Below, piece after piece: positions 26,535 to 30,980 of a DNA stretch of 64,000 bases. The stretch lies in the NCBI GenBank assembly GCA_963717285.1, contig CAVQVW010000002.1:516783-580782 (forward strand), written 5' to 3'. The number at the start of each line of letters is the position of its first letter. Position 1 is the stretch's first letter. A model generated the notes under the pieces. It was not told where the DNA came from and ran no database searches. It was given only the letters and a program-made list of their open reading frames with translations. This DNA is from an uncultured Thermoleophilia bacterium. Lineage in GTDB: Bacteria; Actinomycetota; Thermoleophilia; UBA2241. Made by a program: the position numbers and the translations under genes.

Positions 26535-29500
26535 ATGTCGGGCACACCCCCGAAGTCCACCGGAGCCGCTCTCGTGCTGGGCGGAGGCGTCGCCGGGATC
26601 CAGTGTTCACTCGACCTGGCCGAAGGCGGCTACAAGGTCTACCTCGTCGAGCGCGCTCCTGCTCTCGGCGGGCACATGGCCCAGCTGGACAAGACGTTCC
26701 CGACCAACGACTGCTCGATGTGCACGCTGGCGCCCAAGCTGGTCGAGGCCGGCCGGCACCTGGACATCGATATGATCACGAACTCCGAGCTCATCGGCCT
26801 CCAAGGCGAACCCGGCCACTTCGAGGCCAACGTCCTCCATCACGCCCGCTACGTCGACCCGGATCTCTGCACGAGCTGCGGAGAATGCGTGCCCGTCTGC
26901 CCCGTGACCGTGCGCGACAGGTACAACGAGGGCCTGAGCGAGCGCAAGGCGATCTACAAGCTCTACCCCCAGGCCATCCCCAATGCCTACGCGGTCGACA
27001 AGCTCGGCTACGCGCCCTGCAAGAGCGCTTGCGCCGTGCAGACCTCGGCCCAGGGCTACGTCGCCCTGATCCGCGAGGGCAAGTTCGCCGAGGCCTACCG
27101 CGTGGCCGCGGAGCCCAATCCCTTCCCCTCGGTCTGCGGCCGCATCTGCGCCCACGCCTGCGAGACCGACTGCACGCGCGGCAAGGTCGACGAGCCGATC
27201 GCCATCGCCAGCCTCAAGCGCTTCGTCTGCGACGTCGCCGGCCCGACGGAGCTCCCGGAAGCGCTGCCGGTGCAGCACGCCGAGAAGATCGCGATCGTCG
27301 GCGGCGGCCCCGCCGGCCTCTCGGCCGCCCGCGACCTCGCACAGTACGGCTATGCGACCACCGTCTTCGAAGCGCTGCCGGTCGCCGGCGGCATGCTGCG
27401 CGTCGGCATCCCCGATCACCGCCTGCCGCACGACGTGCTGCAGCGCGAGATCGACCAGATCTGCGCCCTGGGCGTCGACCTGCGCCTCAACCAGCGCTGT
27501 GGCGCCGACTTCACCGTCGACTCGCTGCTGGCCGACGGCTACAGCGCCGTCTTCCTCGGCGTCGGACTGCAGAAGGGCCTGCCCTCTCCGGTGCCCGGCG
27601 ACGATCTCAGCGGGACCCTGCAGGCCGTCGACTTCCTGCGCGAGGTCAATCTCGAGCGCCCGCCGGCGGTCGGCGAGCGCGTGGTCGTGATCGGCGGCGG
27701 CGACGTGGCCTTCGACGCGGCGCGCAGCGCACTGCGCATCCAGACGCCCTCAGGCGGGCTTCCCGAGGTCACGATCGCCTACCGGCGTAGTGCCGCCCAG
27801 ATGCCTGCCTCTCCCGAGGAGATCGAGGAGGGCCTCGAGGAGCAGCTCAAGATCGAGTACCTGGTCGCTCCGGTCGAGATCCTGGGCACCGACGGCAGGG
27901 TCACCGCCATCAAGCTGCAGCGCATGGAGCTGGGCGAACCGGACGAGCGCGGCCGTCGTCGTCCCGTGCCCATCGAGGGCGCCTTCATCGAGATTCCCTG
28001 CGACACGGTGATCATGGCCATCGGCCAGGCCCTCGTGGACGACTTCGCCAAGGACCTCGAGGGCGTGGTCCTCGAGCGCGACCAGATCGCCGTCGACCCC
28101 GCCACGCTGGCCACCGGCCGCAAGGGCGTGTTCGCCGGCGGGGACGTCGCCGCGATCGGACCGCTGACGGCCATCGAGGCGATCGCCGCCGGCCGGCGCG
28201 CCGCCGCCGCCATGCACAACCACCTGCGCGGTGAGAGCCTCGTCAGCCTCTGGGAGGACTCCCTGCCGGTCGCCGAGCCCGACCCGGAGATCGTCGCCAG
28301 GACCGCCGCCCAGGGCCGCGTGCCCATGCCCGTGCACGACGGCGTCACACGGCGCACCAGCTTCGACGAGGTCCGCACGGGCTACACCGAGGAGCAGGCC
28401 GTGCAGGAAGCCTCGCGCTGCCTCGACTGCGCCATCTGCAGCGAGTGCATGGAGTGCGTACACGCCTGCGGTCCCGGCGCCCTGCTGCACGAGGAGCGCG
28501 ACCAGGAGATCGAGCTCGACGTGGGAGCGGTCGTGCTGGCCACGGGCTACGACCTCCACGACCCCGGCGCGAAGAGCGAGTACGGCTACCGGCGCTACCC
28601 CAACGTGTTCTCCGCGTTGGAGTACGAGCGCCTGCTCAGCGCCAGTGGCCCGACCATCGGGGCGCTCAAGCGGCGCAGCGACGGCGCGCACCCCAAGAGG
28701 ATCGCCTTCATCCAGTGCGTCGGCTCACGCGATCAGGAGCACGAGTACTGCTCCAGCGTGTGTTGCACGTTCGCCAACAAGCAGGCGATGCTCACCATCG
28801 ATCACGAGCCGGACTGCCGGCCCGAGATCTTCCTCATGGACATGCGAGCCCAGGGCAAGGGCTTCGACGCGTTCTACCAGCGCGCCGTCGCCAAGGGTGT
28901 GAGTTTCATCCGCTCACGACCCTCATACATCAAGGAAGACCCGCTGAGCCGCGACCTCCTGATCAGCTGGGAGGACGAAGCCGGCGGGCTGCACGAGTCT
29001 CGCTACGACATGGTCGTGCTCTCTGCCGGCCTGGAGCCCGCGCGCAAGGCGCAGGAAGCCGCCGGTCACGTCGGCATCGCGCTGAACCGCCACGGCTTCT
29101 GCCGGCTCAAGGAGTTCGCGCCGCTGCAGACGAGCCGTGAGGGCGTCTTTGTCGCCGGGCCGTTTGGCGAGCCCAAGGACATCCCCGACTCTGTCGCCCA
29201 AGCCTCCGCCGCAGCGGCGAAGGTGATGACCAGCCTCGCCGACGCACGCGGCACGCTGACCATAGAGCCCGCCCACCCGACAGAGCGCGACGTCAGCGAG
29301 GAGGAGCCGCGGGTCGGCGTCTTCGTCTGCCATTGCGGCACCAACATCGCCGGCGTAGTCGATGTCGAGAACGTGGCCGACTACGCGCATGGTCTCGCCA
29401 ACGTGGTGTACTCCACAGACTCGATCTACTCGTGCTCGAGCGACAGTCTGGCGCAGATCCGCGAGAAGATCGCGGAGCACGACCTCAACCGTGTCGTCGT

Positions 29501-30980
29501 GGCCAGCTGCACGCCGCGCACGCATGAGCCCATCTTCCAGGACACGCTGCGCGAGGCCGGCCTCAATCCGTACCTCTTTGAGATGGCCAACATCCGCGAC
29601 CAGGCGAGCTGGGTGCACAACACCGAGCCGGAGAGGGCGACCGACAAGGCCCGCGATCTCGTGCGCATGTCGGTCGCCCGCGCGCGCATGCTCGAACCTC
29701 TCTACAAAGTCGACGTCCCGCTCTCGCACGCCGCCGTCATCATAGGCGGCGGGATCGCCGGCATGACGGCCGCCGACGCGCTCGGCGAGATGGGCCACGA
29801 GGTGCATCTGGTGGAGCGCGGGCCGCGGCTCGGCGGCCACGCGCTGGAGCTCAGCCGCACGATCCGCGGAGGCGATCCCGCGGAGTACGCAGGGCGACTC
29901 GAGCAGAAGCTGGTCGAGAACCCCCGTGTGCGCATCCATCTCGAGTCGGAGCTGGCCGACTTCCAGGGTTTCATCGGCAACTTCTCCGGTGTCATCGTAG
30001 CCGCCGACGGCCAGCGCACGACGGTCGACCACGGCGTCGTGGTCGTGGCCACCGGGTCCCGCGAGGAGCGCCCCGCCCTCTATGGCCTGGGCGACAACGA
30101 GCGCATCGTCACGGGCATGGACCTCGAGAGCATGCTGAAGAACGAGGACCCGGCTCTCGACGAGGTCCGATCGGTCGGCTTCGTGCTCTGCGCCGGCTCG
30201 CTCGACGAGAGCCACCCCTACTGCTCGCGCACCTGCTGTCAGCAGAGCATCAAGAACGCCATTACCCTCAAGGAGCGCGACCCGGAACGGCCCGTCTACG
30301 TGTGGTTCAAGGAGATGCGCACCTTCGGCTTCCTCGAGGAGTACTACACGAAGGCCCGCGAGCTGGGCGTCATCTTCACGCGCTACGACAACGATCAGCC
30401 GCCGCAGGTGAGCTCGAACGGCAACGTCCGCGTCGCCCATCGCGACCCGCATCTCGGGCGCGACGTCGAACTGCCTCTGGACCTCCTGGTGCTGGCCACG
30501 CCGAGCGCGCCCGCCGACGGGGCCGCCGAGCTCAGCAAGCTGCTCAAGGTGCCGCTCACCAGCGAGGGCTTCTACCTCGAGGCGCACGTCAAACTGCGTC
30601 CCGTGGACTTTGGCAGCGAGGGCATCTTCCTCTGCGGCGCGGCGCACTACCCCAAGGGCCTGGACGAGGCGATCAGTCAGGGCTGCGCTGCGGCGGCGCG
30701 TGCGGCCGCCGTCCTGGCCAAGCCCGTCATCAAGGCCGGCGGCGTCGTCGCCGAGGTCGACGAGGACAAGTGCGCAGCCTGTCTGACCTGCGTGCGTATC
30801 TGCCCCTACGACGTCCCGCTCATCGACCCCGAGACGAAGAAGGCCAAGATCGAGTCGGCCGCCTGTCAAGGCTGCGGCATCTGCGTGAGCGAATGCCCGG
30901 TGAAGGCCATCGTCCTGCATCACTACACCGATGCGCAGGTCTTCGCCAAGGAAGACGCGCTCTTCATGGAGGTGAGCTGA
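26535..30980 (+). CDS. giant HdrA-like flavoprotein with inserted GltD/NfnB-type NAD(P)H-binding module and a second HdrA-like module (HdrL-like)
   Basis: 1481 aa. HdrA N-terminus [10 protein letters not shown]...[20 protein letters not shown] plus [12 protein letters not shown]. GltD-family module [33 protein letters not shown] and [14 protein letters not shown]. HdrA hallmarks [13 protein letters not shown] and [11 protein letters not shown] second FAD module [35 protein letters not shown] with YCSRTCC. C-terminal 2x[4Fe-4S] ferredoxin [12 protein letters not shown]...[12 protein letters not shown]. Confidence 0.8.
   Translation: [1481 protein letters not shown]

Follow-up and report, generated by a model that had tools for sequence, protein, structure and literature searches.

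A GltD/NfnB-interrupted, Moorella-type HdrA of 1481 residues in a metVF operon of an uncultured actinobacterium

The 64-kb stretch of DNA analysed here (the window) carries an hdrA gene of HdrL, or Moorella, type (26535..30980, + strand, ATG start) whose reading frame runs unbroken for 1481 aa, and it raises the question of how so long an HdrA is built and which enzyme it serves. An AAGGAG Shine-Dalgarno sequence at ~26525-26530, 7 nt 5' of the start, provides a strong ribosome-binding site, and a promoter-like site, TGGACT-18-TATAAT (26422..26451, + strand; a consensus match only), lies ~85 nt upstream of the ATG. A first-pass annotation had described a giant mosaic protein. The mosaic is real: the frame is intact, the motifs quoted then are all found in the protein, and domain searches support the order HdrA / GltD-NfnB / HdrA / HdrA. 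What we show ourselves is how the protein is laid out, how well its ligands are conserved, and the operon it belongs to.

Layout of the polypeptide

In Pfam searches, Fer4_20 and Pyr_redox_2 match aa 159-553, so that the middle segment is of the GltD/DPD type, as first annotated; Rossmann and ferredoxin matches follow from aa 1066 onward and at aa 1405-1459. The NCBIfam HdrA/HdrA2 models match four separate stretches, with equivalog scores under the curated cut-offs (957 vs 1100 for HdrA, 663 vs 1400 for HdrA2), and the GltD/Nfn-type models match aa 159-665. Against HdrA (5odc_A), phmmer aligns aa 9-156 with HdrA residues 143-290, aa 634-848 with 292-510, aa 923-1073 with 2-152, and aa 1326-1479 with 497-652. 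AF2 models, with medium confidence (pLDDT 76-78), match NfnABC-A/StnA plus HdrA for aa 1-920, and HdrA for aa 921-1481 (E 4.5e-52, TMq 0.80).

Unit 1 (all features are on the + strand) opens with the N-terminal part of a TrxR-like FAD domain (aa 1-105; 26535..26849; phmmer against 5odc_A and ligand alignment). It has GGGVAG and the motif FPTNDC60SMC63, where C60 and C63 are the equivalents of HdrA Cys194 and Cys197 and are kept in 39/39 sequences. The inserted ferredoxin domain follows in two halves, both identified by phmmer and ligand alignment: the first (aa 106-158; 26850..27008) has C112/C115/C118/C122 and the second (aa 634-650; 28434..28484) has C635/C638/C641/C645. Between them sits an NfnB / NfnABC-A / StnA-like NAD(P)H-FAD-2[4Fe-4S] module (aa 159-633; 27009..28433; Pfam, NCBIfam, AF2 and Foldseek), which had been placed at residues 155-565. 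Its cluster cysteines are C162, C166, C201, C205, C209 (with E210), C213, C629 and C632, the first cluster drawing on both ends of the module. The FAD motif GxGxxG is at aa 256-261 and the NAD(P)H motif GxGxxA at aa 387-392, with 'AYRRS' behind it at aa 415-419; this NADPH-type 'YRR' signature is found in this clade, and an acidic NADH-type motif in sister clades. The rest of the unit 1 FAD domain (aa 651-915; 28485..29279; phmmer, ligand alignment and model) includes E698 and K749, equivalents of HdrA E356 and K409, and the cluster cysteines C728, C739, C743 and C744. HdrA does resume after the module, as had been proposed for residues 570-990, but it does so from aa 634, and unit 1 ends near aa 915.

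Unit 2 starts at aa 921 and not at residue 995, because aa 921-1060 (29295..29714; phmmer, model and alignment) are its HdrA N-terminal, MvhD-like cluster domain, with C932, C934, C967 and C992. The TrxR-like FAD domain that follows (aa 1061-1400; 29715..30734; alignment and model) has GGGIAG and retains E1198, K1240 and C1219, C1230, C1234 and C1235; it lacks Cys194/197 and the inserted ferredoxin. The polypeptide closes with a C-terminal 2x[4Fe-4S] ferredoxin domain with 8 Cys (aa 1401-1481; 30735..30977; Pfam, phmmer and alignment). Nine [4Fe-4S] sites are possible in total. Every predicted Fe-S ligand, GxGxxG motif (three in all) and Glu/Lys pair is kept in 32-39 of the 39 sequences, which come from several phyla.

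The second HdrA-like module, which had been called complete, is thus not so, and neither is the first, where N-terminal domain and C-terminal ferredoxin are both missing. What each unit lacks the other has, so by sequence the two are complementary halves of an HdrA dimer and not two complete modules. The same complementarity of Cys197 and N-domain is reported for fused HdrAs, the Moorella one included, which act as their own heterodimer (PMC9012536). In ANME archaea, a ~500-aa NfnB-like insertion breaks the inserted ferredoxin domain of HdrA9-11, and in HdrA3/4, where two HdrAs are fused, the losses of Cys197 and of the N-terminal domain complement each other; insertion and fusion are there in separate proteins, whereas here, as in Moorella, they share one polypeptide, and the N-domain is on the first unit of HdrA3/4 and on the second here (PMC9012536). 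Not one ANME-1 genome analysed in that study has MetF clustered beside an HdrA homologue (PMC9012536).

Methanogen HdrA (5ODC, 8RVU, 7BKB) shares the TrxR FAD fold, the flavin-proximal cluster, the N-domain and the inserted and C-terminal ferredoxin domains, with 34% identity to unit 2. It differs in being a homodimer of ~650 aa without an NAD(P)H module that reduces CoM-S-S-CoB and free ferredoxin. The nearest relatives of the insert are NfnB of NfnAB (4YLF, 5JCA), NfnABC-A (9BOV, 9N5U) and StnABC-A (8OH5), with ~40% identity over the FAD/NAD(P)H/2[4Fe-4S] module and, for the Foldseek matches (9bov_A, 9n5u_A, 8oh5_C), ~3 A rmsd. NfnABC-A and StnA also share the arrangement 'PCxxxC ... RCLxC', in which the NfnB N-terminal segment lies behind the flavin domains. 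Unlike the module here, inserted within HdrA and scoring under the curated cut-offs of the GltD/Nfn models, these relatives are subunits that pair with NfnA or HydBC-like partners.

The operon and the enzyme

Five genes on the + strand follow hdrA, with Pfam identities as expected: mvhD (FlpD family; 30982..31551) starts 2 nt past the hdrA stop codon; metV (MTHFR C-terminal-like, DUF5981; 31548..32231) and metF (MTHFR; 32228..33172) each overlap the preceding stop codon with their start; hdrC (2x[4Fe-4S], Pfam; 33183..33770) comes next; and hdrB (two CCG domains; 33767..34636) overlaps the hdrC stop codon. These overlapping or abutting codons link hdrA-mvhD-metV-metF-hdrC-hdrB, and the MetFV context first assigned to the gene is borne out. 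Although the window holds no other Wood-Ljungdahl genes, and metVF is absent from the examined flanks of about half of the full-length homologues elsewhere, we consider it likely that hdrA, co-transcribed with the other five genes, codes for the large subunit (HdrA) of a methylene-THF reductase of type IV (Hdr-type, Moorella-type).

The comparison with M. thermoacetica points the same way. Its HdrA (Moth_1194) has 1487 aa (162.8 kDa), a second unit at aa 922-1487, and a GltD module with clusters, FAD and NAD(P)H that breaks the N-terminal ferredoxin/TrxR part (PMC9430772). The likeness, judged by published description, extends from length and layout to the Glu/Lys pairs in both TrxR domains (E696/K750/E1204/K1246 there (PMC9430772), E698/K749/E1198/K1240 here) and to clustering with mvhD, metV, metF, hdrC and hdrB. 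The host is a Firmicute there and an uncultured high-GC actinobacterium, probably of the Thermoleophilia, here, the gene order is hdrCBA-mvhD-metVF versus hdrA-mvhD-metVF-hdrCB, eight [4Fe-4S] clusters are predicted versus nine possible sites, and the Moorella enzyme, compared by description and not by motif, oxidises NADH, versus the NADPH-type 'YRR' here. Enrichment and assays of the Moorella MetFV-HdrCBA-MvhD complex date from 2014 (Mock et al. 2014, per PMC9430772, PMC8760232): NADH is oxidised by HdrA and methylene-THF reduced by MetF (PMC9430772, PMC8760232), and NADH-dependent methylene-THF reduction was never shown (PMC9430772). Since the layout matches, the 1481-aa protein is, on sequence grounds, one more case of an enzyme that is already known but still poorly understood. 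The first annotation, an unusual HdrL in a new setting next to MetFV, is not supported; the order hdrA-mvhD-metVF-hdrCB had already been reported in Actinobacteria (PMC7325909).

The Sporomusa ovata HdrA (942 aa), also of an Hdr-type MTHFR, likewise has tandem TrxR-like units, the second without inserted ferredoxin, and clusters with mvhD and metVF; unlike the protein here, it has neither the GltD module nor the extra ferredoxin, carries one Glu/Lys pair only, and its NADH:BV activity is very low (PMC9430772).

The resemblance to HdrL noted in the first-pass annotation does hold. In Desulfobacterium autotrophicum and Syntrophobacter fumaroxidans, HdrL is a large fusion of HdrA and glutamate synthase that has an NAD(P)H site, and mvhD comes after it; it differs in that its loci have dsr, fdh or hdrABC genes and not metFV, some members are selenoproteins, and the class is loosely defined and without biochemistry (PMC2702500, PMC5947623). 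In sulfate reducers, where HdrL was so defined, it is proposed to take electrons from NADH and hand them on to sulfite or DsrC. The protein here might then be an NAD(P)H:disulfide oxidoreductase acting with HdrBC on DsrC-like or other thiol/disulfide partners, metVF being co-located without functional coupling. HdrB retains both CCG domains, and at Desulfomonile and other loci (L004, L008, L022, L009, L029, L040) a full-length homologue stands with hdrCB or mvhD only, metVF being absent. We find this reading unlikely, as metV and metF are tied between mvhD and hdrC by start/stop overlaps, the order hdrA-mvhD-metVF-hdrCB recurs across phyla, the window is without dsr or apr genes, and Moorella co-purification and S. 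ovata pull-downs tie Hdr proteins to MetFV.

Electron routing and the flavins

For the Moorella-type methylene-THF reductase, we infer the electron routing, the choice of bifurcating flavin, the third partner and the use of NADPH in this clade. The polypeptide would be a covalently fused, asymmetric HdrA 'heterodimer', in which the Cys197-type ligand and the inserted ferredoxin domain come from unit 1, the N-terminal cluster domain together with the C-terminal ferredoxin from unit 2, and each unit keeps its own FAD site and flavin-proximal [4Fe-4S] cluster. The NfnB/StnA-like module (FAD, NAD(P)H site, two [4Fe-4S]) divides the inserted ferredoxin domain, whose two cluster motifs lie on either side of it. 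This position suggests that electrons from NAD(P)H run over four clusters and the N-domain cluster to an HdrA flavin, using the branch which in methanogen Hdr leads to free ferredoxin. From this flavin they would pass by the flavin-proximal cluster to HdrC/HdrB and on to MetV/MetF, reducing methylene-THF; in reverse the complex would oxidise methyl-THF. By way of the C-terminal ferredoxin, MvhD would link a putative third redox partner, and the complex as a whole would run by flavin-based bifurcation or confurcation.

The fusion had been taken to hold two potential bifurcating flavins. This does not follow, as by the fused-heterodimer pattern the electron branches are complete only once. A protein in which two or three flavins bifurcate independently (both HdrA-type FADs and the NfnB-type FAD), with two bifurcation reactions in series, would fit the Glu/Lys pair, the literature marker of bifurcating HdrA flavins, being in both units (E698/K749 in 39/39 sequences, E1198 in 35/39, K1240 in 32/39). 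The flavin-proximal cluster cysteines are retained in units 1 and 2 alike across the 39-sequence comparison, and in NfnAB the NfnB-type FAD is the bifurcating flavin. We nevertheless regard this as improbable. The N-domain cluster, the inserted ferredoxin domain and the C-terminal ferredoxin each occur just once in the polypeptide, so that by the methanogen template only one HdrA flavin can have all three branches; the operon has hdrB, hdrC and mvhD in single copy; and GltD-type modules also serve as plain entry points from NADPH to clusters, as in glutamate synthase and DPD.

Spread of homologues

An identical sequence is recorded on a contig of 871 kb. Independent assemblies contribute over 100 protein clusters with lengths of 1478-1511 aa and identities of 52-88%, and ~20 more 50%-identity clusters are collinear across aa 6-1199. 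The idea that separate gltD-like and hdrA genes were fused by assembly or annotation, a doubt raised with the first-pass annotation, for which the sole ground is the unusual length against the 650-aa methanogen HdrA, has practically no chance of being right: the independent collinear homologues refute it, the frame is unbroken behind its strong ribosome-binding site, and a head-to-tail misassembly would not yield an insert inside a split ferredoxin domain, flanked by its two halves and with its own first cluster built from both ends. A full-length collinear homologue is found at 43/80 genome loci, in many phyla. At 20 of the 43 metV is nearby, and 11 have the full five-gene set; such loci include Thermoleophilia, Chloroflexota, Planctomycetota, Lentisphaerota and Syntrophorhabdaceae.

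Gene integrity, operon and occurrence

The giant HdrA of the window (26535-30980, + strand) is read from one unbroken frame of 1481 aa, with an AAGGAG ribosome-binding site 7 nt 5' of the ATG, a promoter-like site upstream at 26422-26451, and a GC3 of 0.91 that is in keeping with the other genes of this 68% GC window. The exact sequence is also on record, as part of an 871-kb contig. More than 100 protein clusters of 1478-1511 aa, from independent assemblies, are 52-88% identical to it, and about 20 additional clusters (50%-identity) are collinear with it over aa 6-1199. Among the matches listed, 43 of the 80 fetched genome loci have a collinear full-length homologue; the homologue loci span Thermoleophilia, Chloroflexota, Desulfobacterota, Planctomycetota, Lentisphaerota, Armatimonadota, Clostridia and other groups, and the Thermoleophilia homologues include one protein at 84% identity (P0005) and one locus at 71% (L001). 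A fusion created during assembly, the concern raised with the first-pass annotation, is rejected on the strength of these clusters and collinear loci, and the giant ORF is genuine.

Directly downstream of hdrA and on the same strand, Pfam identifies mvhD (30982-31551, FlpD), metV (31548-32231, DUF5981), metF (32228-33172, MTHFR), hdrC (33183-33770, dicluster ferredoxin) and hdrB (33767-34636, two CCG domains). Abutting or overlapping start and stop codons point to a single operon, and the MetFV context proposed at first for this HdrA is borne out by the order hdrA-mvhD-metV-metF-hdrC-hdrB. Among the matches listed, metV lies nearby in 20 of the 43 loci with a full-length HdrA homologue, and the full five-gene set is found in 11; the remaining loci include some with mvhD and/or hdrCB only. 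Loci L004, L008, L022 (Desulfomonile), L009, L029 and L040 combine a full-length HdrA with hdrC-hdrB, with or without mvhD, and have no metVF. The giant HdrA apparently works with other partners in some lineages.

The Pfam scan of 32 window ORFs finds no other Wood-Ljungdahl genes; the other scanned ORFs are housekeeping genes (acetyl-CoA synthetases, dnaX, recR, oxoprolinase, trp genes, secA and others). There are no dsr or apr genes among the scanned ORFs, and for this reason an HdrL-DsrC link to sulfate reduction is rejected for this locus. About 500 nt 3' of hdrB there is a glutaredoxin/thioredoxin-reductase-like fusion of 408 aa (35162-36388, + strand), with a small reverse-strand ORF in between, followed by a TM1586-type nitroreductase at 36997-37851. 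Elsewhere in the window we observe an AMP-forming acetyl-CoA synthetase (3523-5475, + strand), two tandem Pat-like paralogues of about 900 aa each that join an ADP-forming acyl-CoA synthetase to a GNAT acetyltransferase domain (5586-8336 and 8585-11269, + strand), and a 421-aa ORF (14754-16022, - strand) with a coding-like GC3 of 0.81 and without a Pfam match at E<=1e-6.

An NfnB-like insert and two complementary HdrA units

Pfam and NCBIfam place a GltD/DPD-type module (Fer4_20 + Pyr_redox_2) in the middle of the protein, as had been expected for the middle segment, and HdrA-type matches in four separate stretches. We obtained the correspondence to the HdrA of M. thermolithotrophicus (5odc_A) by phmmer. 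Window aa 9-156 correspond to HdrA aa 143-290 (start of the FAD domain and first half of the inserted ferredoxin domain), aa 634-848 to HdrA aa 292-510 (the remaining half of the inserted ferredoxin domain, followed by FAD domain), aa 923-1073 to HdrA aa 2-152 (N-terminal domain), and aa 1326-1479 to HdrA aa 497-652 (end of the FAD domain and C-terminal ferredoxin). The whole-protein scores are below the curated cut-offs of the NCBIfam models for CoB-CoM heterodisulfide reductase HdrA/HdrA2 (NF041778, NF041891, NF040770; as listed, 663.5 vs 1400, 672.5 vs 1300 and 957.3 vs 1100), and the cut-offs of the models for the NADPH-dependent glutamate synthase small subunit and NfnB (TIGR01316, TIGR01317, NF009410) are not reached either (as listed, 340.3 vs 471.75, 193.4 vs 447.7 and 499.3 vs 516).

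The limits of the insert come from T. maritima NfnB (4ylf_B). NfnB residues 46-462 align to window aa 161-567 (nt 27015-28235), and its N-terminal segment (residues 5-43, ending in RCLQC) aligns to aa 595-633 (nt 28317-28433). The placement of both segments thus sets the insert at aa 159-633. The order is permuted relative to classical NfnB, such that the NfnB N-terminal segment stands after the flavin domains; the A subunits of NfnABC (9bov_A, 9n5u_A) and StnABC (8oh5_C) have the same order as the insert and are collinear with it throughout. The insert is embedded in HdrA and is about 40% identical to NfnB, NfnABC-A and StnA. C629/C632 together with C162/C166 make one Nfn-type cluster motif, and C635/C638/C641/C645 are the second of the two motifs in HdrA's inserted ferredoxin domain.

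AF2 models, run separately on aa 1-920 and aa 921-1481, agree with this map. In the first model (pLDDT 78) the insert matches NfnABC-A and StnA (about 40% identity, about 3 A rmsd), and the parts outside the insert match HdrA (8rwn_A, TMt 0.81). The second model (pLDDT 76.5) matches 5odc_A (E 4.5e-52, TMq 0.80). Among the PDB matches to the sequence and to the AF2 halves there is no entry with the 1480-aa HdrA architecture.

A three-way alignment of HdrA, window aa 1-156+629-920 (the first HdrA-like unit) and window aa 921-1481 (the second unit) identifies which parts each unit has. The first unit includes GGGVAG and FPTNDC60SMC63 (the counterparts of methanogen Cys194/Cys197), the inserted ferredoxin domain with its two CxxCxxCxxxC motifs, the pair E698/K749 as counterparts of E356/K409, and C728/C739/C743/C744 as cysteines of the flavin-proximal cluster; the N-terminal domain and the C-terminal ferredoxin are both missing from it. 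The second unit includes the N-terminal domain with C932, C934, C967 and C992, GGGIAG, E1198/K1240, C1219/C1230/C1234/C1235, and a C-terminal ferredoxin with eight Cys. In this unit Cys194/197 and the entire inserted ferredoxin domain are absent, and none of 39 aligned homologous sequences (0/39) has a Cys at the Cys194/197-aligned positions. Because each unit carries the HdrA parts missing from the other, the two are, judged from these alignments, complementary halves of a dimer and not duplicates.

The HdrA/GltD-NfnB/HdrA mosaic described in the first-pass annotation is thus supported by Pfam, NCBIfam, phmmer and AF2, with two of its boundaries corrected: the insert is aa 159-633 and the second unit starts at aa 921. 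The two HdrA-like modules had also been described as complete, and structure prediction was to say whether both retain their ligands. Both modelled halves do match HdrA or NfnABC-A/StnA, but the description as two complete modules does not hold. The 39-sequence alignment, which covers several phyla, keeps essentially all ligands and motifs in 35-39 of the sequences (the least conserved position is K1240, with 32), which confirms the complete cofactor set as conserved over many phyla.

Two cysteine positions vary in other ways. A1024 (nt 29604-29606), in the N-domain motif 'RDQASW' of the window clade, aligns with HdrA Cys104 ('REHCSW'). This position is a Cys in 30/39 homologues and an Ala in the window clade; therefore this Cys is dispensable or replaced there. 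In loci L033 and L066, an in-frame TGA aligns exactly with window Cys63 (nt 26721-26723). This residue is the N-domain cluster's Cys197-type ligand, and the TGA suggests that some Desulfobacterota homologues have selenocysteine there. Amongst 13 loci with broken ORFs checked for selenocysteine, such a TGA accounts for two and not for the other 11.

Relation to type IV MTHFR and putative electron routing

The window HdrA is a new example, probably from an uncultured Thermoleophilia bacterium, of the Moorella-type HdrAs known from type IV methylene-THF reductases (MTHFR). The M. thermoacetica HdrA (162.8 kDa, 1487 aa; Kremp et al. [quoted passage not shown] Compared with this published description, the window protein shares the layout and the length of about 1480-1490 aa: a TrxR-like first unit with its ferredoxin domain split by the GltD/NfnB module, a C-terminal unit made of N-domain, TrxR and C-terminal ferredoxin without the inserted ferredoxin, and Glu/Lys pairs at E698/K749 and E1198/K1240. 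The type IV MTHFR gene set mvhD, metV, metF, hdrC and hdrB adjoins the window hdrA, in an order identical to the hdrA-mvhD-metVF-hdrCB known in Actinobacteria with the Wood-Ljungdahl pathway (PMC7325909). The novelty initially implied for this protein was therefore overstated, as the Moorella description matches it point by point (PMC9430772).

Other parts of the architecture have precedents as well. In ANME-1 HdrAs the inserted ferredoxin domain is interrupted by NfnB-like insertions, and in fused HdrAs Cys197 and the N-domain are lost in a complementary way, a pattern that the Moorella HdrA fits (Chadwick et al. 2022, PMC9012536). The window HdrA is a fused 'self-heterodimeric' HdrA in that sense, with C60/C63 and no N-domain in the first unit and the reverse in the second. 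The resemblance to HdrL noticed at first also holds: the 2009 definition of HdrL is an Hdr/glutamate-synthase fusion with mvhD as the next gene (Strittmatter et al., PMC2702500), and the window protein is likewise a large fusion of HdrA and glutamate-synthase type that carries an NAD(P)H site and precedes mvhD. HdrL is a loose, architecture-based family.

In type IV MTHFR, NADH is oxidised by HdrA and methylene-THF is reduced by MetF; the coupled reaction has never been demonstrated in the literature, the third substrate is not established, and confurcation of NADH and menaquinol was proposed in 2026 (PMC8760232, PMC13040438). NADH:benzyl viologen activity of HdrA and its physical association with MetFV are reported only for Moorella and S. 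ovata (PMC9430772). In the template of methanogen Hdr, as summarised in PMC9012536, the high-potential branch runs from the flavin-proximal cluster to HdrCB, and the low-potential branch from the N-domain cluster (including the partner's Cys197) to the inserted ferredoxin domain. On this template the fused protein would have one copy of each branch, with the NfnB-like module wired to the one whose end point in methanogens is ferredoxin, and this arrangement is compatible with one HdrA flavin as the centre of a bifurcation or confurcation in which NAD(P)H is the low-potential partner. Methylene-THF would be reached via HdrCB and MetV to MetF, and a further partner would act through MvhD.

Type IV MTHFR is the least understood Wood-Ljungdahl step, and its third substrate and role in energy conservation are still debated as of 2026. 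The locus adds an actinobacterial member, probably of Thermoleophilia, to its HdrAs, and it sharpens the domain map by placing the NfnB-like module within the inserted ferredoxin domain and presenting the HdrA units as complementary dimer halves. It is no new kind of system, and alone it does not make the open coupling question testable.

Two motif types at the NAD(P)H site

Where the second strand of the NAD(P)H Rossmann fold ends (aa 406-425, window 27750-27810), the window HdrA and its closest relatives (75-88% identity) have 'EVTIAYRR[ST]' and a 5-residue insertion. By its residues, YRR is the 2'-phosphate-binding signature known from NADPH-dependent GltD and NfnB, and it predicts NADPH use by the window HdrA. 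Relatives at 66-75% identity have 'VTINCIEDD' instead, an acidic NADH-type motif. In the 39-sequence alignment, 14-16 sequences have YRR and 20-21 have C[LI]E. A bolder reading, which we consider rather unlikely, is that the type IV MTHFR of the Thermoleophilia clade may have switched to NADPH and that, family-wide, with the NAD(P)H module attached to the branch which in methanogen Hdr delivers low-potential electrons to ferredoxin, NAD(P)H may serve a confurcating enzyme as low-potential co-reductant and not as the donor that is bifurcated, with the third partner entering through MvhD. If true, the natural YRR and CIEDD variants, otherwise 70-75% identical, would be a ready-made pair for probing the coupling of the type IV enzyme. 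Both forms are also found in other phyla, including homologues from Chloroflexota and Desulfobacterota. We noted the split among the proteins P0002-P0020, P0025 and P0078 of the cluster search and the genome loci L001 and L002-L047.
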